This document shows positions 6,729 through 30,912 of a stretch of 40,663 bases of DNA, in pieces. The stretch lies in assembly GCA_964601135.1 (NCBI GenBank), contig CAZRMD010000003.1, positions 1-40,663 on the forward strand, given 5' to 3'. The notes under the pieces were generated by a model. That model saw only the letters and a program-made list of their open reading frames with translations, did no database searches and had not been told where the DNA came from. The position numbers were made by a program, and so were the translations under genes. The stretch is from an uncultured Actinomycetes bacterium. GTDB lineage: Bacteria; Chloroflexota; Dormibacteria; CF-121. The stretch's first letter is position 1; the number at the start of each line of letters is the position of its first letter.

Positions 6729-8255
6729 CTATTGAAGGAGGTCGTGCTGCAGGGCGAAGACCGCGGCCCCGGCTCGGGTGGAAACGCCAAGCTTGTCGTA
6801 GATGTGGCGAACGTGATGATCAGCCGTATTCGGTGAGATCCCGAGGGCCCGGCCAACCTCTTTCCTCGAGTGACCGCGGCAGATCAGCCGCAAAACCTCG
6901 ACCTCCCGATCGCTGAGCTCGGCCGGCCATTCCCGTCGTGCCGTGACGCGCCCGGCACCGGCCGCCGTCAGGACGGCATCGACGGCCTCACGATCACGCC
7001 TGCCCGCTGAGACGTCCTGGTTGAGAAGCGCGGCCGCTTCGTCCTTCGAGTGGGCCGGCCGCCACGGCCGGTCCGAGGTCATCGCCTGGAATGCGTCAGC
7101 CACCGACAGCAGCCGAGCGTTTCGTGAGATCTCGGGCGCGCGGCAACCTCGGTGATAACCAGAACCATCGAGATTTTCATGGTGGTGACCCGCGGAATCA
7201 GCCAGCGAGCTGAGCGCTTGACAGCGCAACAGGATGCGCTCGCTGTAGTAGGCGTGCAGACGTACCTGTTCGCGCTCCCCCTCGCTCAATGCTGCCGGCT
7301 TCTCCCAGGTCCCGTTTGGCACGGCTATTCGGCCAAGGTCGTGGACCAGGGCCGCACGTTTCAGGCTCTGCTGATCGTTCGCTCCTGCGCGAATTGCCAG
7401 GGCAGCCACCTGGCGTGAGTGACCGAGCATGAAAGGAGCCTTCATGTCGATGAAATCGGCGAAGACTTCCAGCACCGTGTCGAGCTTTGCGTCGGGTATC
7501 CATGGCCACGGTTCGGGCTCGGCCGCAAGCACGGCGTCCCATGGCGATGCGGTTTGGGCCAGGTCTTGCAAAAGCTCGCCTCCGCAAGCTGCGACGAGAT
7601 GGCTCAGTTCTGGATCATAGGTCCGAGCCTTTTGGCGGCCGGCGATGGTTTTGATGGCGGCGTCTGCATCGCTGGTCCGGCTCAACACCTCGAGGTCGCG
7701 GGCGATAAAGGCGATTCGTGCGGAGAGAGCAATCTGCTCTCCGGCAAGTCCATGCGGCAAACCGTGACCATTCCAGAGCTCAAACGTCTGCGCCAGCGAT
7801 CGACGAATGCCGTCATTCAGGGACAGTCGCTGGGCGAGGTTCTCCGCCAGCTCACAGTGCGCCAGCAAGCCCTGCCGGATCGGCGAGACACCGCCGGCGA
7901 TGAATCCGGGGATCTGCCGGGGCCGCACGTAGCGAAGGACGGTGGGCATGAATTCGCGAGGCGACGCTCCGAGCACCGGAGCAAGCCCAGCCCGGTAGCG
8001 ACGCTCATCGCCGCCAACCCGATGTGAAAGCTCGGACGAATCGGCGGTGCAGCCAATGAAGCGAAGGAGGGCGACATAGTAGACCTCGGAAAGTTCCGCA
8101 GCAGCAAGGTCGAGCTGCCGGCCCAGTCCCATCGCGAGCAGACAGGTTCGTAGCGCCTGCTCCATCGGTTGGCCCATGCCGAGGTCGGTCGCCAGCGAGA
8201 TGGCGGCGATCAGCTCGGCGAGCCGGAAGCTCGTTCGGTCGTGCCCGGTTAGCAT
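6729..8255 (-). CDS. HD-GYP-like phosphohydrolase domains with a C-terminal LuxR HTH
   Basis: RLAELIAAISLATDLGMGQP, LVHDLG, HHENLDGSGY, LSDREVEVLRL...HIYDKLGVSTR. The start was trimmed to ATG 8255 to avoid overlap with ggt. Confidence 0.88.
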   Translation of the reverse strand: MLTGHDRTSFRLAELIAAISLATDLGMGQPMEQALRTCLLAMGLGRQLDLAAAELSEVYYVALLRFIGCTADSSELSHRVGGDERRYRAGLAPVLGASPREFMPTVLRYVRPRQIPGFIAGGVSPIRQGLLAHCELAENLAQRLSLNDGIRRSLAQTFELWNGHGLPHGLAGEQIALSARIAFIARDLEVLSRTSDADAAIKTIAGRQKARTYDPELSHLVAACGGELLQDLAQTASPWDAVLAAEPEPWPWIPDAKLDTVLEVFADFIDMKAPFMLGHSRQVAALAIRAGANDQQSLKRAALVHDLGRIAVPNGTWEKPAALSEGEREQVRLHAYYSERILLRCQALSSLADSAGHHHENLDGSGYHRGCRAPEISRNARLLSVADAFQAMTSDRPWRPAHSKDEAAALLNQDVSAGRRDREAVDAVLTAAGAGRVTARREWPAELSDREVEVLRLICRGHSRKEVGRALGISPNTADHHVRHIYDKLGVSTRAGAAVFALQHDLLQ

Positions 8256-8262
8256 CGATTTG

Positions 8263-10041
8263 ATGTTTACCACGCGCCCAGAGCTGCGCGGCACATTTGG
8301 GATGGTCAGCTCCACGCACTGGCTGGCTTCCCAATCGGGGATGGCGGTTCTCGAGCGCGGCGGCAATGCCTTCGATGCCGCGGTTGCGGCCGGCTTTGTT
8401 CTTCAGGTGGTCGAGCCTCACCTCAACGGGCTCGGCGGTGATCTGCCGATCATCCTCTGGGATGCCGGCAACAAGACGGTCGAGGTCATCTGCGGCCAGG
8501 GTTCCGCGCCGAAAACTGCGTCGATCGCGCAGTTCCGCAAGCTCGGACTGGATGCGATTCCGGGCACCGGCCTGCTGGCCGCATGCATACCTGGAGCCTT
8601 CGGAGGATGGCTCAAGCTGCTCGCCGAGCATGGCACGATGCGACTCCGCGATGTGCTCCAGTACGCCATTGACTACGCGAGCGGTGGTTATCCGCTCATT
8701 CCGGCGATCGTCCAGGCGATCGCCCAGATCGAGCCAGTCTTCCGCAAAGACTGGCCCGAGTCCGCCCGCGTCTACCTCTCTGATGGAGTCCCGAAAGCCA
8801 ATAGAACGTTTCGCAATGTAGATCTCGCTAGGACCTACGAACGAATCCTGAATGAGGCCGAGGCCGCGACCTCCGACCGCGACGGCCAGATCGAGGCCGC
8901 GCACAAGGCCTTCTACCAGGGGTTCGTCGCCGAAGCAATCGACGCGCATTGCCGCAAACCCGCGATGGACAGTTCGGGCCGCCGCCATGGCGGCCTGCTG
9001 ACCGCTGACGACCTCTCGAGCTGGAACGCTCGCGCCGAGCCGTCCACGCACCTGACATACGGCGCGGCCACCGTGCACAAGACCGGACCGTGGGGCCAGG
9101 GACCGGTTTTCCTGCAGCAGCTTGCCCTGCTTCGCGGCTTCGACCTGAAGCGGATGGCGTTGATTGGTGCCGACTACATTCACACCCTGACCGAGTGCGC
9201 GAAGCTCGCTTTTGCGGATCGCGAGGCGTGGTATGGCGATCCCGATTTCGCCGACGTCCCGCTGACCGCGCTGCTCGATGAGAGCTATGCCACCGAACGG
9301 CGACGGTTGGTCGGCCCGCGAGCGTCGCTCGAGCTTCAGCCGGGAAGCGTCAATGGCCGGCAGCCAAGGGTTCCCTGGGCTCATCGTTCCCGCCCCCTTG
9401 TGGGGAGGGCCAAGGAGGGGGCCCTGGGTGATCCAACGCTCGCATCGAATCCGCTGGGCGACACCTGCCATGTGGACGTCGTCGACCGCTTTGGCCACAT
9501 GGTCGCCGCAACGCCGAGCGGCGGATGGCTGCAGAGCTCTCCGGTGATCCCCGGACTCGGCTTCTGTTTAGGGACGCGCACCCAGATGTTCAATCTCGAA
9601 GAAGGACATCCCAATGCGCTGCAAGGGGGCAAACGCCCCCGCACAACGTTGAGTCCCACCCTCGTGACGCGAGACGGCGAGCCCTGGCTCGTGTTCGGCA
9701 CGCCCGGCGGCGATCAGCAGGATCAGTGGTCGTTTAACTTCTTTCTCGCGCACCTCGAGTACGGCTTCAACCTTCAGGCTGCGATCGACACCCCGATGTT
9801 TCATACGGTTCATTTCCCGAGCTCGTTCTTCCCCCACGAGGCGCACCCGGGCCGCCTCCTGGTCGAGGACAGAATCGCACCGCCCGTTGTTACTGAGCTT
9901 CGAAAGCGAGGGCATGACGTCGAGCGAGCCGGCGCCTGGGCGCTGGGGCGCCTCTGCGCCGCCGGCAAGGATCCGCAGACCGGCCAGCTCATCGCCGCCG
10001 CCAATCCGCGGGGCATGCAAGGCTATGCCGTCGGGCGCTAG
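8263..10041 (+). CDS. ggt: Gamma-glutamyltransferase family protein
   Basis: MFTTRPEL..., GGNAFDAAVA, autocatalytic Thr in DTCHVDVVD, GKRPRTTLSP, FGTPGGDQQ. Confidence 0.93.
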   Translation: MFTTRPELRGTFGMVSSTHWLASQSGMAVLERGGNAFDAAVAAGFVLQVVEPHLNGLGGDLPIILWDAGNKTVEVICGQGSAPKTASIAQFRKLGLDAIPGTGLLAACIPGAFGGWLKLLAEHGTMRLRDVLQYAIDYASGGYPLIPAIVQAIAQIEPVFRKDWPESARVYLSDGVPKANRTFRNVDLARTYERILNEAEAATSDRDGQIEAAHKAFYQGFVAEAIDAHCRKPAMDSSGRRHGGLLTADDLSSWNARAEPSTHLTYGAATVHKTGPWGQGPVFLQQLALLRGFDLKRMALIGADYIHTLTECAKLAFADREAWYGDPDFADVPLTALLDESYATERRRLVGPRASLELQPGSVNGRQPRVPWAHRSRPLVGRAKEGALGDPTLASNPLGDTCHVDVVDRFGHMVAATPSGGWLQSSPVIPGLGFCLGTRTQMFNLEEGHPNALQGGKRPRTTLSPTLVTRDGEPWLVFGTPGGDQQDQWSFNFFLAHLEYGFNLQAAIDTPMFHTVHFPSSFFPHEAHPGRLLVEDRIAPPVVTELRKRGHDVERAGAWALGRLCAAGKDPQTGQLIAAANPRGMQGYAVGR

Positions 10042-21329: not shown

Positions 21330-21875
21330 TCAGCCAGAAGCCACCGGATCTTGCCGATCGGGGCGGTCAAGATGGCCTCGTGCTCGGAAGGAGCGCTCAC
21401 TGAGAGCCGCATAACGGTGGGCCGCCATCGAGTGTGCCTCCGCAAGTAAGGGCTTTATCGATTCGAAAGTCTTTGCGGACGGATTGAGCACACAAACCCA
21501 ATGGTTACCGCCATACAGGGGGTGTGGCATGACAACGTCGAGCTGCGAGAAGTCGGGCGTCTCGGCCTCGGACGGAAAGAGAGAATCGTAGGTCTTACGG
21601 CTCACGCCGATGTTCAGCCGGTAAACCCCCTTCCTGTTCAGATCGGAAAGGTTGTCAAACTCCCCGTAGTCCTGACTCACGATGGTTGCGAAGGGAAACT
21701 TGCTCGCACCCTCCAGCCGTCGCTCGGGGTCATAGAAAAAGAAGGTTGTTCCCCAGGACACCTCAGGAGCGCCGTTCTCTTTCGAGGCGATGACAACATC
21801 GACCCCACTAAGCGAGGAGATGTACTCGCTGATAACCCCTTCTTCGAGTGCCCGGGCTGCCATCGCATCCTTCAC
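21330..21875 (-). CDS. DUF6194-like protein
   Basis: WGTTFFFYDP, FPFATIV, SDLNRKGVYRLNIGV, MPHPLYGGNHWVCVLNPS. Confidence 0.78.
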   Translation of the reverse strand: MKDAMAARALEEGVISEYISSLSGVDVVIASKENGAPEVSWGTTFFFYDPERRLEGASKFPFATIVSQDYGEFDNLSDLNRKGVYRLNIGVSRKTYDSLFPSEAETPDFSQLDVVMPHPLYGGNHWVCVLNPSAKTFESIKPLLAEAHSMAAHRYAALSERSFRARGHLDRPDRQDPVASG

Positions 21876-21908
21876 GATACGTTGAACGCTTGCGGGATCA
21901 TCCGGTGT

Positions 21909-22334
21909 TCATGATGGCAGGTCGAGTAGGTCGAGACCGCTCGCAGGATCCCGCACCCGACGCACGCGCGCGGCTTCCGTCCTGACCCAGACTTCCAGCG
22001 TTGGATGCACCCGGCCCTCCTGAACGTGCCCGCCAATCACGGCGTAGTCCGACCGCCCGAACACGCCGTGGACGTGAGGGAATGGCTTGTCATCCTTGAG
22101 TGCGGTGTTGCCCTGGAAGCTCAAGACCTCGAGCTGCTCCTTGAAGTCCCGGTATGAATAGGACCGCGTGGTGGCGTTCCAGTAACCAAGGGTCACCGAC
22201 TGGAAGGCGCCGGTAGCACTCAAGAAGGCAAAGTCGATCTCCTCGTCACTCAGGAATTTTCTGAGCGTCTCCATCGCGGACTCGCCGCTTTCCAGGCGCA
22301 ACATGTAGCGATCCCCAAATTGCTTGAACCTCAT
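21909..22334 (-). CDS. PPC/DUF296 domain protein
   Basis: LRLESGE, EVLSFQGN, PHVHGVFG, GGHV, PTLEV. It overlaps the upstream stop (ATGA). Confidence 0.88.
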   Translation of the reverse strand: MRFKQFGDRYMLRLESGESAMETLRKFLSDEEIDFAFLSATGAFQSVTLGYWNATTRSYSYRDFKEQLEVLSFQGNTALKDDKPFPHVHGVFGRSDYAVIGGHVQEGRVHPTLEVWVRTEAARVRRVRDPASGLDLLDLPS

Positions 22335-23029
22335 GCCACGGCCTCTGACTCCGTCAAGCGGCGGCGAATATCATCGGCAGTGGCCAGCCCGATCAGCTCT
22401 CCATCGGAGGTCGTGACCAGGGCGTAGCCGAGGTGGTGATCGGCCAGATAGCGGTCCACCTCCTCCAGACCTGCGTTGGGCCGAAACGTAACTGGTCCTT
22501 TGAGCATTGCATCCTCGACCGTCCTGGAGGCATTCGACTGGATGTCATTACTCCTGAGCAGTCCCAGCACGATGCGATGCTCGTTGACGACGACGCAGGG
22601 ACTGGTTGAAGCGGACGTCAGCCGCGCCTTAACCTCACTGATGCGCTCATCGAGCTTGCACGTTGGACTGTCACGCCGCGCCAGCGTGCCGAGGTTCGGG
22701 ACGCCTGCCTTTGTCCCCTCCGTTGGAAGGCCCACGGAAACCCAGTCGAGCTTGCCCGGAGGGTAGTCGAAGACCTTGGTGAAGCCGAGACTCTCGAGCC
22801 GCCACGCGGCCCGCTTGCTCATGTCTCATTGGTAGTCGTAGCAGTAGGTGATGACAGGCCGGCTCTTGTCGAGCTTGCTGGTGGTAGTGCGATCGAGTTC
22901 CCGCAGCGGGATGCTGATGGCTCCGGGAAGATGCTCCTCCTCGTACTCCTGCGCAGGGAGAACCTCTACCAATTGCGCGCCTTCCCCCAGCAACTTCTGA
23001 AGCTGCGATCGATCGATGCTTGTCGGCAT
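22331..23029 (-). CDS. Rhodanese-CBS fusion protein, probable selenoprotein (232 aa, Sec68)
   Basis: Track ORFs 22826-23029 and 22331-22822 are in the same frame: ...ITYCYDYQ-TGA-DMSKRAAWRLESLGFTKVFDY. The TGA (22826-22828) falls inside the rhodanese active-site loop, and a hairpin follows. Confidence 0.8.
22795..22813 (-). promoter_or_regulatory. Candidate SECIS element (rhodanese-CBS)
   Basis: CGGGCCGC-GUG-GCGGCUCG; the G-initiated loop starts after a 20-nt spacer from the UGA; GAGAC/GUCUC can form a basal stem. Confidence 0.6.
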
Positions 23030-23057
23030 GGGCCAACCTCCTTTCTATGTGCCGGCG

Positions 23058-23225
23058 CTAGACCTGGTGCAAGGGACTGGCAATGACTCGGCGCACCGGC
23101 TCCGCGACAAAGCGATCGTGGCACCGTTGGGAACAGAAGTGGTGAATGCGCCCGGCAAACTCCCAGTACCACTTGGTGATCGTGGTCAAGTCCCTGCAGC
23201 AGTTCGCGCAGATGTCAGCCTGCAA
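23058..23225 (-). CDS. Small YHS/TRASH-like metal-binding protein (55 aa), absent from the ORF track
   Basis: AAGGAGG upstream of TTG: MQADICANCCRDLTTITKWYWEFAGRIHHFCSQRCHDRFVAEPVRRVIASPLHQV; FCSxxC motif. Confidence 0.65.
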   Translation of the reverse strand: MQADICANCCRDLTTITKWYWEFAGRIHHFCSQRCHDRFVAEPVRRVIASPLHQV

Positions 23226-23355
23226 CGCCCGCGAAGACCTCCTTCAGGGATTTTCCGTCGTCGCGGGACAGGTCCGAAACGGAGGGCCGCCCCCAGTAGT
23301 AGTAGCCGTTGTAGATCGGAAAGATCGTCAGCTCCGGCTCGAGGACCCCGCGCAT
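23215..23355 (-). pseudogene. Short ORF resembling the C-terminal remnant of a redoxin-domain protein
   Basis: MRGVLEPELTIFPIYNGYYYWGRPSVSDL... resembles the YNGYWFWGRPS motif I recall from actinobacterial redoxin proteins. No N-terminal domain is present. Confidence 0.4.
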
Positions 23356-23428
23356 ATCTCAACCTACTGTATGAGGCCGGCCGCCCGCCCGGGATTCCCG
23401 TTGAAGGGCCGGCCTCTCCAGTATCCGC

Positions 23429-23881
23429 TCAGGCCGCGACGCGCCGGGGAACGACGGTGCCGCGGGCTCTCACTTTCATAGACTCAATGGCCACCAACGC
23501 GATGGTCGCAGCCGCCAGGACGAAGTCTTTGAGCAGGAACTGCCCGGCCAGTGAAAGATATGGAAAGCCCTTGGTCCCATAGGTCACGCTCGCGGCGTCC
23601 ACGAAGATCGTCAGCGTGCCGGCGAAGAGGATCAAGATCAGCAACCCGACGTACCGAACGGCGACGCCGGCGACCAGCAAGATGCTGGCGGCGATTTCCA
23701 GTACCCCAACGGCATATACGAATCCGTTCGAGGCCAGGAACGGCAGCCCGGCGTGCAACAGGCCGACGACCGGACTGGGATCGGCAAACTTAAGGGCGCC
23801 AATCCAGAACAGGACGAGGCCGAGGCTGATGCGCAGGAGTGGCCCGGCGATCCGCTCGACCAATGTGAACAATTTCTCCAT
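23429..23881 (-). CDS. DoxX/DUF417 (YkgB/RclC-like) membrane protein
   Basis: LRISLGLVLFWIGALKF and GQFLLKDFVL motifs; AGGAGG RBS. Confidence 0.8.
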   Translation of the reverse strand: MEKLFTLVERIAGPLLRISLGLVLFWIGALKFADPSPVVGLLHAGLPFLASNGFVYAVGVLEIAASILLVAGVAVRYVGLLILILFAGTLTIFVDAASVTYGTKGFPYLSLAGQFLLKDFVLAAATIALVAIESMKVRARGTVVPRRVAA

Positions 23882-23902
23882 CGTTACCTCCTGTGGATTC
23901 GG

Positions 23903-24310
23903 CTACGGCTGAACCGGGCAGCGGAAATCTGCGGCCGAATTCCGGGTCACGGTCACATCGCCCTTCGAAGCAGCGGCTTGGACGGCCTGCGCGCTGGTGA
24001 GCAGGTACGGTGTGACACCGGTTTTGAAGGTGACGAGGTTGACGGCCCATGCACCTCCGTGATAGTCGCCGGTGCCGGGCGCCACCCCGGCGATCCCGAG
24101 TTGGCCGTTGGCCCCGTTGGTGACCTTAAAGAATGGGTCCCTGCCGCTGTTCGGGAAGGCTGACGGGGGGATCACAGTATGGATGGTGCCGCCGTTGTAG
24201 AAGAGCGTGCCGAACCCCACTTCGGCATTCGTGCTGTCGGCAAAGCCCGCGATGGCCGTGCCCAGCAGCAGCGCAACCGCGACGATCGAACCGGCAACCA
24301 GTCGTTTCAT
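23903..24310 (-). CDS. Hypothetical secreted protein
   Basis: AGGAGG RBS; signal peptide MKRLVAGSIVAVALLLGTAIAGFA; APGTGDYHGGAW and terminal FRCPV. Confidence 0.8.
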   Translation of the reverse strand: MKRLVAGSIVAVALLLGTAIAGFADSTNAEVGFGTLFYNGGTIHTVIPPSAFPNSGRDPFFKVTNGANGQLGIAGVAPGTGDYHGGAWAVNLVTFKTGVTPYLLTSAQAVQAAASKGDVTVTRNSAADFRCPVQP

Positions 24311-24377
24311 GGCGTTGACCTCCTGAGTCGGAAATGCGAGCCATGCTGTCAGGCCGGTATGACACGGAGATAACGAA

Positions 24378-24414
24378 GCTTCATCGACGCTTCATAAACC
24401 GGATTCGGCTTCAT
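24378..24414. promoter_or_regulatory. GCTTCAT direct repeats, candidate OmpR-family binding site
   Basis: GCTTCAT at 24378, 24389 (11-bp period) and 24408, in the divergent gap before the response regulator. Confidence 0.6.
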
Positions 24415-24451
24415 CGGCCCGTCACAGACTCTGGCTAAGCTCGAGTGAGCC

Positions 24452-25159
24452 ATGGCCGAAGCGATCCTGGTGGTCGACGACGACGCGAAGATCGTCCGCC
24501 TCGTCCGGACCTACCTGGAGCGCGACGGCTTCGCGGTGGTCGCCGCGACGGATGGGCGGGCAGCGCTGCAAGCTATCCGGGAGCAGCCGCCCCGCCTCGT
24601 GGTCCTGGATTTGATGCTGCCGGAGCTCGACGGTCTGGCCCTCCTGCGCATCGTGCGAGAAGACTCTGACGTGCCGGTTTTGATGCTTTCCGCGCGTGGG
24701 TCCGCCGCTGACCGTGTTTATGGGATCAACGAGGGCGCCGACGACTACCTGGCCAAGCCGTTCTCCCCGGCTGAGCTGGTCGCGCGAGTCAAGTCCCTTC
24801 TGCGGCGCAGCAGTTCGGCGAGCCGGCAATCGTCTCGGCACGACGGAAGGCTCGTTTTCGACGACCTGGCCATCGATCTCGACCGGCACGAGGTCAAGCA
24901 ATCCGACCGGCCCGTGCCGCTCACCGCGGCCGAGTTTCGGCTTTTGAGCGCCCTGGTGCGCGCGGACGGCCGCGTGCTCACTCGTGAGCTCCTTCTCGAT
25001 GCGTTGTACGGCGCAGCGCCGGCCGACGCGCTCGACCGAACTATCGATGTCCACATCGGCAGGCTGCGAGAGAAACTCGGCGATGACGCCGAGCGTCCCC
25101 GCTACATCGCGACGGTCCGTGGGGCCGGATATCGGGTCGTCGGGCCGGCGAGCGAATGA
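24452..25159 (+). CDS. OmpR-family response regulator
   Basis: ILVVDDD, LDLMLP, GADDYLAKPF, RTIDVHIGRLREKL, TVRGAGY. Confidence 0.95.
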   Translation: MAEAILVVDDDAKIVRLVRTYLERDGFAVVAATDGRAALQAIREQPPRLVVLDLMLPELDGLALLRIVREDSDVPVLMLSARGSAADRVYGINEGADDYLAKPFSPAELVARVKSLLRRSSSASRQSSRHDGRLVFDDLAIDLDRHEVKQSDRPVPLTAAEFRLLSALVRADGRVLTRELLLDALYGAAPADALDRTIDVHIGRLREKLGDDAERPRYIATVRGAGYRVVGPASE

Positions 25160-26232
25160 TCCGGCGAGCGCTGCCCGGCCCGATGATGGTTCGCATCGCG
25201 ATCGCCACCCTGCTCGTGACCGCAGCAGCCGTGCTGGTGATCGCTGGAGGCGTGCTTATCGTCAGTCAGTCGCTTTTCCAGCGCCTGATGGAGGAACACG
25301 GCGCGAGTGCGGTCGCCGCCAGGGGCATGTTCGAGCAGACGGTTGGCACCGTCTTCCTGGTTGCCCTGGGGCTTGGCGCCGGGCTGAGCCTCGCGCTCGC
25401 CGTCATCCTGGCCCGTCAGCTGTCGCGTCCGCTCGAGCGCATTGGAGACGCGGCACGACAGCTGGCCGATGGCGATTACCGTGCCCGCGCCCAGCGACAG
25501 GGTCCTGATGAAGTGATCTCGCTGGCCGACTCGTTCAACCAGATGGCGGAAAGCCTGGAAGAGCAGGAGCGGCTGCGTCGCGAGTTCATCATCAACGCCG
25601 CGCACGAGTTGCGAACCCCGCTGACCAATCTGCAAGGCTACCTCGAAGCCCTGCGCGACAATGTGATCGCACCAGACCCGGAGGTCTTTGCCTCACTCCA
25701 TGAAGAGGTTGATCGTCTGGTGCGCCTGTCTCATTCACTCGATTTACTGGCCGAGGGAGGTTCACAGAGGAGCTCACATCCCCCGATCACGATGGACGTG
25801 ATCATCGCGATCCGCTCGGCGGTCGACCTCGCCAGGCCGGCATTCGATCGGCGCGGCATCACCATCGAAACTCGGCTACCAAGCGATGTCCAGGTGCGAA
25901 CCCACCCCGACCAGCTGGCCCAGGTGCTCGCGAACTTGTTGCAGAACGCCTCCCGCTACACACCGGAAGGCGGGCGGGTGACGGTGGCCGTCGAGACCAA
26001 TCCCACAGACGTGCTGATCAGCGTCTCCAACAGCGGCGATGGCATCCCCGCCACCGATCTGCCACACGTGTTCGAGCGTTTCTACCGCGTCGAGAAATCG
26101 AGAGACCGGGCCCGAGGTGGAGCAGGGATCGGACTGGCCATCGTCAAGCAGCTCGTTGAGTCGGCCGGCGGGCGGGTTGGCGTCGAGTCAGCCCCGGGCT
26201 TGACGCGGTTCTGGTTCACCGTGCCGGCCTGA
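25156..26232 (+). CDS. Membrane sensor histidine kinase with HAMP domain (BaeS-like)
   Basis: Two TM segments with a very short external loop, HAMP, AHELRTPL, NLLQNA, FERFYR, GAGIGL. Confidence 0.95.
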   Translation: MIRRALPGPMMVRIAIATLLVTAAAVLVIAGGVLIVSQSLFQRLMEEHGASAVAARGMFEQTVGTVFLVALGLGAGLSLALAVILARQLSRPLERIGDAARQLADGDYRARAQRQGPDEVISLADSFNQMAESLEEQERLRREFIINAAHELRTPLTNLQGYLEALRDNVIAPDPEVFASLHEEVDRLVRLSHSLDLLAEGGSQRSSHPPITMDVIIAIRSAVDLARPAFDRRGITIETRLPSDVQVRTHPDQLAQVLANLLQNASRYTPEGGRVTVAVETNPTDVLISVSNSGDGIPATDLPHVFERFYRVEKSRDRARGGAGIGLAIVKQLVESAGGRVGVESAPGLTRFWFTVPA

Positions 26233-26273
26233 GCGATCCGTCCTGGCCTACCATCGAAAAAAAGGAGGACCTG

Positions 26274-26957
26274 ATGAACGAGCGAAGCTCTCGTGGCACC
26301 GTCGTCTTCGACATCATCGGCACCAGCTTCAGCCTCGGTCGAGTTGGCGATGCGCTGACCCGGATTGGGGCGCCGTCCCACACGCTACCGCTGTGGTTCG
26401 CCCGATCGTTGCGGGATGCCTTCGCCCTCTCGCATGCCGGCGGGTATCAGCCGTTCAAGTCAGTGCTCGAGGCTGAATTGGCGCGCACGCTGCGGCAGCT
26501 CGATGTCCCGGTCACGCCCGAGCAGGTTGCCCAGATCATCGCGTCCTTTGGCCAGCTCGAGCCGCAGCCGGCATTTACCGAGCTCGTCACCGATCTGGCA
26601 GGCGACGGCTGGCGGATCGTTGCCCTGATGAACAGCAGTGTCGAGATGACGAAGGGACTGCTCGAGCGGGCTGGCGTACTGGATCATTTTTCTGCGCTTC
26701 TCTCGACCGATCAGATCCAGAAGTTCAAGCCGCATCCGGCCGTTTACGAGATGGCCCGTAGCGAGTCGGAAGGAGAGATCTGGATGGTGGCCGCCCACGC
26801 CTGGGACATTCAGGGCGCCGCCCGCGCGGGCTTCCGGACCATCTTCATCAGTGGCCTGGAAGGCGGCTATCTCGATGTCTATCCCAGGCCCGACGTCACC
26901 GTCGGTGAGCTCAGCGAGGTTCGCTCGGCGCTGCGCGCGGCTGCGGCCGTCCGCTGA
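26274..26957 (+). CDS. HAD-superfamily hydrolase (haloacid dehalogenase type II-like)
   Basis: VFDIIGT, FKPHPAVY, MVAAHAWDIQGA. Confidence 0.88.
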   Translation: MNERSSRGTVVFDIIGTSFSLGRVGDALTRIGAPSHTLPLWFARSLRDAFALSHAGGYQPFKSVLEAELARTLRQLDVPVTPEQVAQIIASFGQLEPQPAFTELVTDLAGDGWRIVALMNSSVEMTKGLLERAGVLDHFSALLSTDQIQKFKPHPAVYEMARSESEGEIWMVAAHAWDIQGAARAGFRTIFISGLEGGYLDVYPRPDVTVGELSEVRSALRAAAAVR

Positions 26958-26965
26958 GCGACGGT

Positions 26966-27487
26966 ATGGGCATGTCTGCGCTTGGAGCCCTGGTGCGTGG
27001 GGTCATCGCCGCGGCTGTTGGCACCGCGGCCATGGATGCGCTGTGGTATTGGCGATATCGGCGCGAGGGTGGAACCAGCGATCCAATCGCGTGGGAATTC
27101 GCCAGCGGACTCAACGATTGGGACAAGGCGCCCGTCCCTGCCCAGGTGGGAAGGCGTCTGGCTGGAGCGTATCTCGGGCACGAACTACCGGCCGAGAGCG
27201 CCCAGCTGACAACGAACGTCATGCATTGGGGATACGCGTCGTTCTGGGGAAGCGTTTATGGCCTCGTGATTGGTTCAACCCGTTCCAGTAATCCCCTGCT
27301 CGGGTTACCGTTTGGTGCGGCGGTCTGGGGCTTCGGCTACGCCGTCCTGCCGCTGGGCCACTTCTACAAACCTATCTGGGAGTACGACGCGAAGACGTTA
27401 TGGAAGGACTTGAGCGCCCACCTGGTCTTCGGCCTTGCCACCGCGGCCAGCTTCGCGCTCCTAACAAAAGGAGGAAATGATGGCTAG
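26966..27487 (+). CDS. Hypothetical membrane protein (DUF1440-like)
   Basis: AVGTAAMD, MHWGY, YKPIWEYD, DLSAHLVFG. Confidence 0.75.
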   Translation: MGMSALGALVRGVIAAAVGTAAMDALWYWRYRREGGTSDPIAWEFASGLNDWDKAPVPAQVGRRLAGAYLGHELPAESAQLTTNVMHWGYASFWGSVYGLVIGSTRSSNPLLGLPFGAAVWGFGYAVLPLGHFYKPIWEYDAKTLWKDLSAHLVFGLATAASFALLTKGGNDG

Positions 27488-27641
27488 ATGCCCGAAATGC
27501 GGCACGCAGCTGAACGCCGGTGCGATCGATCCTCCAGGGCCACATGGACGGCCCGAGTTGATCTGCCCGCAGTGCGGCAACTACTATCTCTGGGTCGCCG
27601 AACAACTGGAACTGGCCCCTCACCATCCGCTAAAGGCCTAG
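27477..27641 (+). CDS. CPxCG zinc-finger microprotein (54 aa), absent from the ORF track
   Basis: AAGGAGG RBS; MMARCPKCGTQLNAGAIDPPGPHGRPELICPQCGNYYLWVAEQLELAPHHPLKA. Confidence 0.75.
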   Translation: MMARCPKCGTQLNAGAIDPPGPHGRPELICPQCGNYYLWVAEQLELAPHHPLKA

Positions 27642-28286
27642 CTGTTTTCGAGTGAGGGCACGTCGACCGGGATGATATCGCTGCGGGCGAAGATCGGTCC
27701 GACATTCAGACCGATTCGTCGGTAGACGGCCTCGGGCACGGAGATGTCCGCGAGGTAGAGGCTGCCGACCGAGGGCCGGGCCGCCGAGGTTAGCAGACCT
27801 CGCTTCGGCAACGCTAACGTCAGCGTGACCGCAGCGGATCAGTGAAGCCGCTGGCTCGGCGGGGGCACCGCGCAGGCTGTAGCCGATGAGCGCGTCGATG
27901 ATGAGCTCCGACTCGGCGACGAGCTCGGAGGTCCCAGCGCCGTGCAGCCGGATGGGAATCCCCATCCATTCAAGGGTCGTGAGCTGCAATCGCGGCACGC
28001 CGCGCATCTCTTCACCCGCATGCGCCAGCACAACCGTGACAGTCGCGCCCCACGCGGACAGGCGCCGCGCCGCGGCCAGCCCACCTCCGCCGTTGCCACC
28101 ACGTCCAGCCAGAACCGTGATGCGCTGCCCATGCAGCTCGCCGCCGAGGATGTCTCTGGCCAGCGTTGCCAGGCACCGGCCGGCATTCTCCATCATCTGC
28201 AAGAGGCTGATGCCGGCCTCCTCCATCATCAGCCGGTCGACTTCCCGCATCTGCTCAACCGAAACTGACGTGACCGCCGTTTGCAA
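27638..28286 (-). pseudogene. nnrE: NAD(P)H-hydrate epimerase (YjeF-N) with internal deletion and frameshift
   Basis: QMREVDR, LLQMMENAG, GRGGNGGGG, IIDALIGY. Near 27835 the frame jumps to AAVTLTLALPKRGL...LYLADISVP, and the conserved (S/A)xDxPSG segment is missing. Confidence 0.75.
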
Positions 28287-28288
28287 CG

Positions 28289-28573
28289 CTAAGGAACGAC
28301 CTTCACTCCGTGCCAGAACGCGACGTAGTCCTTGATCTGAGCAGCAGCGTCTGAGGGATCGGGGTAGTACCAGGCGCCGTCGCGACTCACCTTGCCGTCG
28401 ACGACGACGTCGTAATAGCTGGCGAGTCCCTTCCAGTGGCAGGTGGTATGTGTCTGGCTGTCGGTAAGGTACTGCCGCCTGACGCTGCTCGGCGGAAAAT
28501 AGTCGTTGCCTTCGACCTTGATCGTTTGATCGCTTTCGGCGATCACCGTGTTGTTCCAAACCGCCTTGGGCAT
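28289..28573 (-). CDS. DUF427 domain protein
   Basis: VIAESD, VEGNDYFPP, TTCHWKGLASYY, AWYYPDP, IKDYVAFW. Confidence 0.92.
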   Translation of the reverse strand: MPKAVWNNTVIAESDQTIKVEGNDYFPPSSVRRQYLTDSQTHTTCHWKGLASYYDVVVDGKVSRDGAWYYPDPSDAAAQIKDYVAFWHGVKVVP

Positions 28574-28605
28574 TCGAATCAGGCCTCCATGTTCTCGGTA
28601 ATCGA

Positions 28606-28821
28606 CTAACCCGCACTCTGGCGTTGCTGCCGGAGTTTGTGCGTCTCCCGGATCGCTTCTCGAAACTCGACGATCATCTGCTGATACTCCGTGACCTCGC
28701 GCGCCGCCTCGACCTGGCCGGCCGCGGCGAGCCGGCCTTTGATGGCCACCGAGGCATAGTAGGCACCGTTGTAATAGGGGAGGAGGTTTTCGAACTTGAA
28801 CGGCGGGTCGCCCCTAGCCAT
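28606..28821 (-). CDS. Hypothetical protein (71 aa) translationally coupled to the peroxiredoxin-like gene
   Basis: Start overlaps the upstream gene end by 8 nt; natural codon usage. Confidence 0.65.
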   Translation of the reverse strand: MARGDPPFKFENLLPYYNGAYYASVAIKGRLAAAGQVEAAREVTEYQQMIVEFREAIRETHKLRQQRQSAG

Positions 28822-29272
28822 GAGAGAGCGCCTTCATGATGGTTTCGTCCTTCGGCCGGTCCGCGAAATCTCGGCCCTCGTAGATGTACCGAACGACGCC
28901 CTGCCGATCGCTTAGGACGAGCGCCGGTTTCGAGATACGCCCTGGCTCGTCCCAAAATCCGAAGGGCTTGATGGCGGTCTCCCCCTCGTGATCGGTCAGC
29001 AGGTCAAAGGGGAGCAGAAGTTTCTCGATCATGTCCCGGTTCTGCTCCGCGGAATCGATCGAAATCGCATAGATTCGAACGCCGGCCTGTCGAAAGGTCT
29101 CGATCTTCCTGGCAATGCTGACCAGCTGCCCATTGCAGTATGGTCACCAGTCGCCGCGATAGAAGACCAGGAGGTTCGGTCCTGCCGGATCGGGCAGCGT
29201 TCGCTGGGAGCCATTCTGGTCTGACAGCGTGAAAGCCGGCAGCTTTGTCCCGACCTTCAGGGTGGTGGCCAT
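28814..29272 (-). CDS. AhpC/TSA peroxiredoxin-like protein, probable selenoprotein (152 aa, UxxC, Sec43)
   Basis: GAGG RBS; MATTLKVGTKLPAFTLSDQNG...LLVFYRGDW-TGA-PYCNGQL...AISIDS, continuing in frame into the track ORF 28814-29032. TGA at 29144-29146. Confidence 0.88.
29112..29136 (-). promoter_or_regulatory. Candidate SECIS element (peroxiredoxin-like)
   Basis: GCAAU-GGGCA-GCU-GGUC-AGC-AUUGC; the GGUC loop starts after a 20-nt spacer from the UGA. Confidence 0.65.
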
Positions 29273-29341
29273 ACCTCTTCGAACAACCTACGCGACAACA
29301 ATCTTCCAGGGCAAGCCGTGCCAATCGATTTCGTAGCGGTC

Positions 29342-30187
29342 TCATACGGGAAAGAGCTTCGCGAAGAAGCTCGAAAATGCCGCCAGCATCAGAAACCAGG
29401 CACCCACGAGAATGAGGATTCGTCCGCCCATTCGCTTGACGGTTGGGGCGTTGGCGCGCATCGTGGCCGTCACGCGCTCACTGGCTGAGGCGATCAAGGC
29501 CGCCAGAGTGAACATCAAGGTGATCATCGCCAGGCCGGCGACGGCGAACGCGAGAACCGCTGCACCGAAGCCACCGACACTGAGCGACGCGCTGGCCAGA
29601 CCGGCCAGGATGGGGCCGGTTCAGCCAAAACCGGCCAGCACGTAGCCGAAGCCGAACAAGAAGAAGCCCGGCAGCGGATGCTCGTGGCGAAAGGCGGCCT
29701 GGCGGCGCATCGCGCCATGCACCGCCGGCTCGAGCGCCCGAAACTCGAAGGGCATGCGGTTGAGCTGGACGAGGCCGAAAAAGATGAGAACCACACCTAC
29801 AGCGGCCCGAATCAGGCGGCCGGTGGTACTCGTGAACGTCACTCCCGCAAAGAGCGCCGTTCCCAAAAGCGCGATGACGAGTCCAGCGAGGATCAAGAAC
29901 ACCGCGGCCCCGACTGCCAATGCTGCCGCATAGCTGAGAGACGCCGCCACACGCCTGTCCGATGCGACACCGGGGGCTCGCGCCAGGATCGAGAGAAGGA
30001 GCGGAAACGAACAGGGCGAAAAGAACGATGCGATGCCCGCGGCAGCGGCGAGCAACAGCAGGGCGCCGCCGGCCACCGGCGGGAGGTGAAAACGTGGATA
30101 CACGACGTAGCCCGCATAGCCAGCCAGCGCGACAGCGAGTATCAGTAAGGAAAGGAGGACGAAGCGCTGCCGCAGAAGCGGTCTCAG
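29342..30187 (-). CDS. CcdA/DsbD transmembrane-type disulfide reductase, probable selenoprotein; start uncertain (CTG 30187 or GTG 30103)
   Basis: First motif SFFSPCSFPLL; second motif GYVLAGFG-TGA-TGPILAGL (TGA 29621-29623), in frame with the track ORF 29342-29527, which ends ...KRMGGRILILVGAW. Confidence 0.8.
29592..29608 (-). promoter_or_regulatory. Candidate SECIS element (CcdA-like)
   Basis: CUGGCC-GGUCU-GGCCAG, a perfect 6-bp stem; the loop starts after an 18-nt spacer from the UGA. Confidence 0.7.
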
Positions 30188-30863
30188 GCTGACGCCGCCG
30201 CATTTCCGCGGAGGACAAGGAGCTTGCGAACCAGGATGCGCCGGCCCTGATTGCTGATGATGCCGTGCTGGCGCCAGTCCGAGAGCGTCCGCGATACGGA
30301 CTCGCGAGTTGCCCCAATCATCTTGCCCAGGTCCTCGTGCGATACGGGTGGAAGCAGCACCCCTTCCGGCGTTTGCTCGCCCTGGTCGATCATCGAGACC
30401 ACGAGAGTGGCTAGGCGACCGGCGACTGGCTGGGAGACCACGCTCTCCAGCGTGTCCTGGAGGTGCACGATTGCTTGGCCATCACCATCATGACCCTGGC
30501 CATCAAGAGCGGGTGCTTAGCCAGCATCTGCAGGAAGTCCTGGCCCCCGGCATCGCAGATATAGCTGTCCTGGATCGGCTCGGCGTGCGTGGCCTCGCTG
30601 CTTCTGCCGAACAGAGCTCCCACGCCGAATAGCTGGCCCGGTCCCAGAACCGCCGTGGTCACCTCATGCCCTTGGGGCGAGAGCTGATAGAGACGAACCC
30701 GGCCCTCCTTGACGAGGTAGACCCGCTCGCTGGAGCCGTCGAGGACAGCCGTTCCCTGCGGACAGTGGCGCATGCGGAGCTCGCTCGAAACCGCGGCCAC
30801 TTCGGCATCGGTCATCCCATCGAAGAGGTTCAGGCGGCGCATGAACCACAGCTTGTCGGGCAC
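30184..30863 (-). pseudogene. Crp/Fnr-family regulator with a 1-nt frameshift (possibly an assembly error)
   Basis: The cNMP domain (30411-30863 frame) and the HTH SHEDLGKMIGATRESVSRTL (30184-30468 frame) join as MAKQ-IVHLQD if one A is added to the AA run at 30471-30472. Confidence 0.8.
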
Positions 30864-30896
30864 GAGTCCAGCCTACGGCAGCGAGCGCTCCGGCGA

Positions 30897-30912
30897 TGTG
30901 ATGCAGGTCACA
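30897..30912. promoter_or_regulatory. Perfect CRP box TGTGA-N6-TCACA
   Basis: TGTGATGCAGGTCACA between the Crp gene and the divergent membrane-protein gene; TAGGCT -10 at 30934-30939. Confidence 0.8.

Follow-up and report, generated by a model that had tools for sequence, protein, structure and literature searches.

A stretch of 40,663 nucleotides (nt) from an uncultured Actinomycetes bacterium, placed by GTDB in the Dormibacteria of the Chloroflexota (contig CAZRMD010000003.1 of GenBank assembly GCA_964601135.1; hereafter the window), carries three minus-strand genes that very probably encode genuine bacterial selenoproteins, as judged from sequence comparison: a CcdA-like membrane protein, a peroxiredoxin (Prx)-like redoxin, and a rhodanese joined to a CBS domain. 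The CcdA-like protein appears to be the new element among them, and the redoxin and the rhodanese appear to fit families already listed. It is predicted to be a seven-helix member of the DsbD/CcdA superfamily, with a Cys in the first core helix and selenocysteine (Sec, U) replacing the second Cys of CcdA in the fourth, and it seems to represent a large family whose members mostly contain Sec.

Three genes with one in-frame TGA each

A first-pass annotation, made from the letters of the window, had pointed to three minus-strand genes that are each interrupted by exactly one in-frame TGA (22826, 29144, and 29621), and reading this codon as Sec indeed gives three continuous proteins. The genes and their Sec codons are as follows.

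29342-30187, minus strand: CcdA/DsbD_TM-like membrane selenoprotein gene; longest open reading frame with a usual start 29342-30103 (GTG at 30103); U161 in AGFG-U-TGP
29621-29623, minus strand: Sec codon (TGA) of the CcdA-like gene
28814-29272, minus strand: Prx-like (AhpC/TSA) thiol:disulfide oxidoreductase selenoprotein gene; U43 in FYRGDW-U-PYC
29144-29146, minus strand: Sec codon (TGA) of the redoxin gene
22331-23029, minus strand: rhodanese and CBS selenoprotein gene; U68 in the motif Y-C63-x4-U68-D-M-S; terminal TGA read as a stop
22826-22828, minus strand: Sec codon (TGA) of the rhodanese-CBS gene

The same fold continues past each TGA, with Pfam domains on both sides. The positions that had been proposed for the three codons also agree with the alignments: they correspond to the second Cys of CcdA (alignment with 5vkv), the first position of the CxxC of the redoxin, and the active-site loop of the rhodanese, in which Cys63 is kept. 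TGA is retained in orthologues, and Cys occupies the site in more distant relatives. As had been expected, gene callers fragment such genes, the CcdA-like gene being stored as a short 'CcdA' and the rhodanese gene as a 162-residue 'CBS domain' protein.

The CcdA-like membrane protein family

The CcdA-like protein carries SPC in its first core helix and GFG-U-TGP in its fourth. Its only match in the Protein Data Bank (PDB) is CcdA (5vkv); the match is full-length, and the SPC and TPC-IGP motifs of 5vkv are aligned with SPC and GFG-U-TGP, which brings SPC and the Sec site onto the two active Cys of CcdA. Both positions are invariant in alignment A4. A precomputed match to DsbD_TM (PF02683) is present on many relatives, and an N-terminal HMA domain is fused to some members of the family. 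No NCBIfam model was matched by the protein or by two of its relatives even at E <= 10, apart from three hits (E 0.12-7.3) to unrelated models, at a level expected by chance. Upstream of the GTG at 30103, the reading frame stays open and encodes the extra N-terminal helix of the family, with no ATG, GTG, or TTG in this part.

Among the best 120 database proteins retrieved with this query, 108 cover only 54-63% of it, and all 10 of these short entries that were aligned stop at GFG, just ahead of the TGA. Nine full-length database proteins were also aligned, of which six have Cys and three have Trp at the site. A profile search of 1.84 billion representative proteins yielded 2170 CcdA-like matches at E <= 1e-3; in the best 150 of these, Cys stands at the site in 76, the protein ends exactly there in 61, Trp is found in one, and the site is uncovered in 12. 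At the level of DNA, 80 loci from one-genome-per-species contigs were compared: TGA was found in 74 and a Cys codon in three (the alignment of one of the latter being doubtful), and the other three end short of the site; in 77 of the 80, the first Cys is encoded by TGC or TGT. Five other genomes with a CcdA-like TGA gene were searched for SelA, which was detected in all five. One of the 80 loci (L056) comes from the unpublished genome G338, which is also one of the five genomes with SelA and contributes to alignments A2 and A4; leaving this genome out gives 73 of 79 loci with TGA and four of four genomes with SelA. The carriers include soil and sediment Actinomycetota, Chloroflexota, Acidobacteriota, Gemmatimonadota, and Armatimonadota, together with one isolate of the Bacillota that has been cultured; at locus L044, which comes from a cultured isolate, the gene lies directly after a MerR-type gene. 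The distribution is patchy, since the gene occurs in only three of the 301 genomes that made up the phylum sample.

SECIS-like hairpins

A hairpin whose G-initiated loop begins after a spacer of 18-20 nt had been reported behind each TGA, and this could be confirmed for all three genes. With the U of UGA counted as nt 1, the Sec insertion sequence (SECIS) candidates are as follows.

29592-29608, minus strand: SECIS hairpin of the CcdA-like gene, CUGGCC-GGUCU-GGCCAG; stem nt 16-21/27-32, loop GGUCU nt 22-26
22795-22813, minus strand: SECIS-like hairpin of the rhodanese gene; stem nt 16-23/27-34, loop GUG nt 24-26; minimum free energy (MFE) fold
29111-29130, minus strand: SECIS-like hairpin of the redoxin gene, bulged; stem nt 17-23/28-36, loop GGUC nt 24-27; -7.1 kcal/mol

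As far as comparative analysis can tell, the CcdA-like gene appears to have strong SECIS support, the rhodanese gene good support, and the redoxin gene only moderate support. In 67 CcdA-like sequences, pairing is seen in 95% of the cells of the hairpin and falls to 2-52% once the partners are shifted; compensatory changes occur in five of the six pairs, and the identical hairpin was found independently by RNAalifold. The Gly codon in the loop is GGT in 66 of the 67 sequences (0.11 bits), compared with 1.7-1.85 bits at three nearby invariant Gly codons. The MFE fold of the single CcdA-like sequence is a competing hairpin, which was dropped since it is not conserved. All 20 rhodanese sequences compared share the same bases at nt 17, 19-23, and 27-33 of the stem, and synonymous entropy is 0 at four stem codons versus 1.5-2.0 bits in the flanking codons. 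The redoxin fold is common to the window, contig C74 of the same genome, and locus L115; hairpins of other kinds occur at about this distance in the remaining orthologues.

Under a strict definition (an uninterrupted stem of at least 6 bp and a G-initiated, GU-containing loop starting at nt 22-25), a hairpin follows 309 of the 99,152 TGA triplets of the genome (0.31%), and both the rhodanese and the CcdA-like hairpins are of this type. In the fdhF element of Escherichia coli, the important bases of the loop are G23 and U24. Rfam searches of the region 20-32 kb at E <= 1 and of the whole window at gathering score returned no SECIS or other relevant family.

Selenocysteine machinery and the meaning of TGA

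The genome was searched for selA, selB, selD, and the Sec transfer RNA (tRNA-Sec), and all of them were found, the last as pieces at contig ends. None lies in the window, as the first-pass annotation had stated: selA and selB are neighbours on contig C38, and selD, which has an in-frame TGA of its own like the selD of many other bacteria that use Sec, is on C11 (G000:C11:11489-12418, plus strand; one TGA). Positions C20:1-87 are 97.7% identical to positions 1-87 of a 96-nt tRNA-Sec from a genome of the same genus and have the anticodon loop CUUCAAA, and C308:1-51 is identical to its 3' part, which indicates that selC is present but broken by contig ends. A 96-nt tRNA-Sec was detected in 11 of 18 same-genus genomes (53-60 bits) and scored over the cut-off in 19 of 31 genomes overall. 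In the Rfam tRNA-Sec search of the genome itself, the best matches were tRNA-Ser, and the gene was located only via the tRNA-Sec of a relative. A 'tRNA-SeC' called by ARAGORN on C197 was judged not credible, being 79 nt long with a 3-bp D stem and no Rfam tRNA match.

The rhodanese and CcdA-like genes themselves terminate in TGA, exactly where their homologues end. This organism therefore still uses TGA as a stop, and context decides how the codon is read. In the proposed mechanism, UGA would be read as Sec by SelB and tRNA-Sec, directed by the hairpin that starts 13-15 nt behind the codon.

The redoxin and its 71-residue partner

The redoxin matches AhpC-TSA of Pfam with 91.7 bits (cut-off 26) in a domain that spans the TGA, and its motif W-U-P-Y-C corresponds to UxxC. 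The family is present in 112 of the 301 genomes. In 20 loci, the site is TGA in nine, TGC in one, and a codon for Ser, Thr, Ala, or Met in 10, the latter as in ordinary TxxC peroxiredoxins; the nearest matches (46-79% identity) have one TGA in every case. The unpublished genome G058 is among the tallied genomes, and its sole match is a weak redoxin without TGA, on which no claim rests. The redoxin gene is followed by a small gene.

28606-28821, minus strand: 71-residue protein gene, overlapping the redoxin stop by 8 nt; motif LLPYYNGAYY

The product of this gene has no match in Pfam or NCBIfam. The gene stands directly after redoxin(U) in seven of eight orthologous loci, and the protein is fused to the C-terminus of the redoxin in L116. 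Among the same eight loci, DUF427 is nearby in two (L117 and L118), and homologues of the two-component pair of the window (62% and 52% identity) are adjacent in one (L120). No signal peptide is visible in the sequence of the redoxin, which would act as a cytoplasmic Prx-like UxxC thiol:disulfide oxidoreductase together with its conserved 71-residue partner.

As a separate observation, the depth of soil-metagenome contigs rises several-fold at 29062-29215, the part around FYRGDW-U-PYC, with many loose ends, which points to close relatives of the redoxin motif in many other organisms of those soils.

The rhodanese-CBS protein

Both sides of the TGA are covered by the Pfam domains of this protein, Rhodanese (51.1 bits, cut-off 22.2) and CBS (46.2 bits). 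The family is present in 30 of the 301 genomes. In 30 loci from this sample, the site is TGA in 20 (the window included), a Cys codon (TGT or TGC) in nine, and uncovered in one, and the context of the TGA is Y-C-x-D-x-x-U-D. The canonical catalytic Cys63 is invariant, and Sec lies five residues on, at the end of the active-site loop (C-x4-U). Cys occupies the site in 14 of 16 full-length database homologues and Trp in two, the Trp probably being due to a gene caller that translated TGA as Trp; many other entries consist of 162-residue 'CBS domain' fragments whose first codon is the ATG that follows the TGA. No conserved neighbour was found within 1.5-kb flanks of the 20 TGA loci, the best cluster being present in three. 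Such a protein could form a Cys-Sec selenenylsulfide or hand over a persulfide, acting as a sulfur or selenium transferase with the CBS part as a ligand sensor.

The genome contains a third rhodanese-CBS gene (G000:C16:18936-19619, minus strand), which is 47% identical and also has one in-frame TGA.

Source, assembly, and second copy of the region

The window belongs to a metagenome-assembled genome (MAG) of 512 contigs with 82.7% completeness and 5% contamination. A second copy of the region, with 80-86% DNA identity, is present in the same MAG on contigs C43 and C74; it is syntenic with the window over 22.3-31.6 kb and retains all three TGAs. The two copies differ mostly at third codon positions on both sides of every TGA. 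The ratios of nonsynonymous to synonymous substitution (dN/dS, Nei-Gojobori method) upstream and downstream of the TGA are 0.10 and 0.15 for the rhodanese, 0.12 and 0.14 for the redoxin, and 0.13 and 0.15 for the CcdA-like gene. The syntenic copy, together with tRNA-Sec pieces at three contig ends (C20, C308, and C316), implies that the bin may mix two related populations; C43/C74 may be paralogous to the window or stem from another population.

Contigs from four independent soil-metagenome studies were compared over 28600-30900, an interval that includes the TGAs of the redoxin and CcdA-like genes only; they show no indels, and both TGAs are unchanged. A near-identical form of the locus is present in the soil metagenomes of 10 studies, and a protein-level search of a plasmid collection gave no matches. 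The lineage is a Sec-using soil lineage with several selenoprotein genes that ordinary annotation splits. A scan of the window for additional TGA-interrupted genes, based on the G+C content at third codon positions, was not discriminating and gave no further candidates. Elsewhere in the window, a housekeeping-type gamma-glutamyltransferase (8176-10041) has its nearest named relatives in MAGs labelled Candidatus Dormibacteraeota (82%) and Chloroflexi (73%).

Gene rows around the three genes

The three genes lie in two co-directional rows, with plus-strand genes between them.

21330-24310, minus strand: row A, co-directional around the rhodanese gene (DUF7482-like, DoxX/DUF417, YHS/TRASH-like, rhodanese-CBS(U), PCC, DUF6194)
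23903-24310, minus strand: DUF7482-like gene of row A, small and secreted-looking; pairwise E 1e-6 with L047
23429-23881, minus strand: DoxX/DUF417 gene of row A
23058-23225, minus strand: YHS/TRASH-like gene of row A, weak (23 bits versus cut-off 30.3)
21909-22334, minus strand: PCC gene of row A
21330-21875, minus strand: DUF6194 gene of row A
24452-26232, plus strand: OmpR-type response regulator and HAMP histidine kinase, between the two rows
30184-30863, minus strand: Crp/FNR-type regulator of row B, split by a 1-nt deletion (cNMP_binding 30411-30863, HTH_Crp_2 30184-30468)
28289-28573, minus strand: DUF427 gene of row B (112 bits)
27630-28301, minus strand: YjeF_N (NnrE-type) gene, last in row B (89.8 bits)

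Row B reads, on the minus strand, Crp (frameshifted), CcdA-like(U), a 70-nt gap, redoxin(U), the 71-residue protein, DUF427, and YjeF_N, and the rhodanese gene lies 5.8 kb away in row A, across plus-strand genes. Most neighbours named in the first-pass annotation could be recognized (DUF417/DoxX, DUF427, YjeF_N, the response regulator, and the histidine kinase); the YHS assignment is weak and the Crp gene is frameshifted. Crp is intact in C74, and the frameshift was also seen in contigs of three soil studies (X2, X3, and X8). In both copies, the redoxin gene follows the CcdA-like gene by 70 nt. C74 carries approximately 1.8 kb that is absent from the window and holds a flavoprotein gene and a normal start of the CcdA-like gene. 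The flavoprotein gene (C74, L171, 4453-5829, minus strand) lies between the Crp and CcdA-like genes and encodes a divergent class-I flavoprotein disulfide reductase of 458 residues, with the active site GGECPYWGC (C-x4-C) and no C-terminal Cys pair, which scores below the lipoamide dehydrogenase and MerA cut-offs.

Neighbours of the CcdA-like gene were counted within 3 kb in the 80 loci. A MerR-type regulator is present in 40 (within 300 nt in 30), although its representative scores below the MerR and CadR cut-offs, and a MerA cluster is present in 10, its representative scoring 561.5 bits versus the TIGR02053 cut-off of 454. Other neighbours include HMA (8), CopZ_Nterm_CC (8), ArsR/SmtB (9), and P-type ATPase (7) proteins; altogether, at least one metal-type neighbour (MerR, MerA, HMA, ArsR, CopZ-type, or P-type ATPase) was found in 53 of the 80. 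A DUF7482 protein adjoins the gene in 15 and secreted TlpA-like redoxins are near it in six, and the redoxin of the window has a weak match near it in one other locus.

Alternative explanations and possible functions

It is highly improbable that the three TGAs are true stops, whether in pseudogenes, in split genes, or by sequencing error, or that the code has been reassigned genome-wide (code 4 or 25). In favour of these readings, there is an ATG two codons past the rhodanese TGA, from which gene callers start the 'CBS protein', and a few database entries have Trp at the sites. However, the codon is retained in 20, 9, and 74 loci from many lineages, purifying selection acts directly after the TGA, where there is no start codon, continuous homologues have Cys at the site, and the hairpins are conserved; independent assemblies agree at the TGAs that they cover, and TGA terminates the same genes. 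Several observations weigh against the selenoprotein reading. The tRNA-Sec of the MAG is seen only as pieces cut at contig ends, and the second copy may come from another population, given the completeness and contamination of the bin. Folding z-scores of the whole 60 nt are weak for all three genes (-0.3 to -1.0); the rhodanese hairpin offers no covariation because its stem is invariant, and this stem contains a single C-A mismatch in copy C43. As for the bulged redoxin hairpin, its sequence is shared only among close relatives, and it falls outside the strict definition. As to the superfamily of the CcdA-like protein, the DsbD_TM score in the window is 19.9/19.5 bits, under the gathering cut-off of 27.1, and the PDB match has a weak E-value (0.53). 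To these may be added, with regard to its proposed role, that the window itself has no MerR, MerA, or HMA gene, and the possible decay of its CcdA-like copy, which is considered below.

The first-pass annotation had gone further and joined the three selenoproteins and their neighbours (DUF417, DUF427, YHS, NnrE, Crp, and the two-component pair) into one Sec-based thiol/sulfur redox module. All three Sec genes were supported, but the single module only in part, as the genes are in separate rows and their links are not conserved, and such a module is now regarded as unlikely. In its favour, the three genes lie inside 8 kb with a redox-type motif in each, the 22-31.6 kb stretch recurs in C43 and C74, and redoxin(U) recurs with DUF427 (two of eight loci) and with two-component homologues (one of eight); DUF7482 accompanies the CcdA-like gene in 15 of 80 loci and a weak DUF7482 relative heads the rhodanese row; and the known selenoprotein TsoB is a rhodanese fused to a DsbD-like domain. 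On the other hand, plus-strand genes separate the two co-directional rows, rhodanese-CBS(U) has no conserved neighbours in 20 loci, and the redoxin is found near the CcdA-like gene, weakly, in one of 80. Across related loci, linkage is conserved between the redoxin and the 71-residue protein (seven of eight) and not between the redoxin and the CcdA-like gene or around the rhodanese. The numbers of genomes in the phylum sample (three for CcdA-like, 30 for rhodanese-CBS, and 112 for the redoxin family) likewise show that the three genes do not travel together.

With respect to the role of the CcdA-like protein, the reading tentatively ranked first is that its Cys/Sec pair would carry a thiophilic metal, for example Hg(II), through the membrane, because most relatives adjoin MerR-type, MerA, HMA, or CopZ genes or carry an HMA fusion. 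A broader proposal, namely an undescribed selenoprotein family of the DsbD superfamily with seven helices and an intramembrane Sec opposite Cys, spread over several phyla under MerR-type control, that would rely on selenol/thiol ligand exchange to move mercury or some other thiophilic metal, is put forward with some reserve. A classical CcdA-type reductant conduit, in which NAD(P)H would supply electrons that a flavoprotein disulfide reductase and the cytoplasmic UxxC redoxin pass on to the membrane Cys/Sec pair and an outer target, is ranked lower and seems somewhat doubtful. It would account for the alignment of the two active residues with the two Cys of CcdA, the redoxin(U) immediately downstream in both copies, the divergent flavoprotein disulfide reductase in C74, and the secreted TlpA-like redoxins in six of 80 loci, and it explains the metal-responsive neighbours by repair of metal-damaged thiols, as DsbD-like ScsB systems reportedly do. 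However, the adjacency of the redoxin is not conserved, no outer-face partner is encoded in the window, and N-terminal HMA fusions and MerA, HMA, and P-type ATPase neighbours point to direct metal handling. It is also rather unlikely that the CcdA-like copy of the window is a decaying gene whose full protein is no longer made, in a family that is itself real. Decay would fit the lack of any usual start codon (ATG, GTG, or TTG) in the stretch from the Crp stop to the first helix, the missing 1.8 kb or so of C74 (flavoprotein gene and gene start), and the 1-nt deletion in Crp; the junction and the frameshift are not assembly slips, since contigs of four studies bridge the junction and X2, X3, and X8 span the frameshift without gaps. 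Against it, the copy retains its TGA, its SECIS, and an unbroken frame throughout, the near-identical form persists in the metagenomes of 10 studies, a start at a CTG or at the GTG at 30103 is possible, and dN/dS versus C74 is 0.13-0.15, although this mostly reflects older history.

Relation to known systems

A 2026 review lists 119 prokaryotic selenoprotein families in its Table 1 (PMC13188914), and a stand-alone DsbD_TM/CcdA family is absent from that table. DsbD/CcdA is likewise unmentioned in the main texts of PMC9312934, PMC2398784, PMC5029168, and PMC1976440, whose supplements could list such a family, and literature searches found no paper on a stand-alone CcdA/DsbD selenoprotein, supplements aside. 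Compared with CcdA (PF02683, 5vkv), the CcdA-like protein has Sec for the second Cys, an extra N-terminal helix, and an optional HMA fusion, and the neighbours of its family are of metal type rather than cytochrome c maturation genes. Metal-type membrane selenoproteins in the same table include the putative mercuric transport protein MerT (PF02411), a Sec cation P-type ATPase, and the SO_0444 Cu/Zn efflux transporter (PMC13188914), and CcdA-domain proteins annotated as 'mercury transporter' appear for actinomycetes in Table 4 of PMC12195606. The likeness to these entries lies in a Sec/Cys membrane protein in a metal-resistance neighbourhood, with MerA or MerR adjoining in part of the CcdA-like family; MerT belongs to a different fold family from the CcdA-like protein, for which metal transport is a proposed role.

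The redoxin of the window resembles the listed Prx-like thiol:disulfide oxidoreductase selenoproteins (PF00578, UxxC; PMC13188914) in its AhpC/TSA fold, the Sec at the first position of UxxC, and the existence of Cys forms, a likeness of domain and motif only, and differs in its conserved 71-residue partner and its position behind a CcdA-like selenoprotein gene. By domain and motif only, the rhodanese is similar to the rhodanese-like 'form 1' (UxxS; PMC13188914), with which it shares the PF00581 domain and U-D-M-S. Its C-x4-U has the same spacing as the U-x4-U of TsoB (a rhodanese/DsbD fusion, UxxxxU), but it is fused to CBS and not to DsbD, and its first position is Cys and not Sec. The TsoB model NF045694 gives 30.7 bits for the rhodanese part of the window protein versus a cut-off of 805 and no match for the CcdA-like protein, and TsoB was not found in the genome. 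The Tso 'three selenoprotein operon' in the review (PMC13188914) is similar in that several selenoprotein genes are clustered, including rhodanese and DsbD-like parts; the window, however, has no TsoA, TsoB, or TsoC, its genes are not in one operon, and their linkage is not conserved.

Implications

These findings would add a membrane-embedded, DsbD-type family to the prokaryotic selenoproteome. Public databases appear to contain the family almost exclusively in truncated form, under the name 'cytochrome c biogenesis protein CcdA', and hundreds of 'CcdA' records of about 190 residues probably represent only the first 63% of a selenoprotein. Since one carrier is a cultured isolate, the prediction could be examined at the bench. 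Moreover, the family may link the use of selenium to heavy-metal gene neighbourhoods in soil bacteria.

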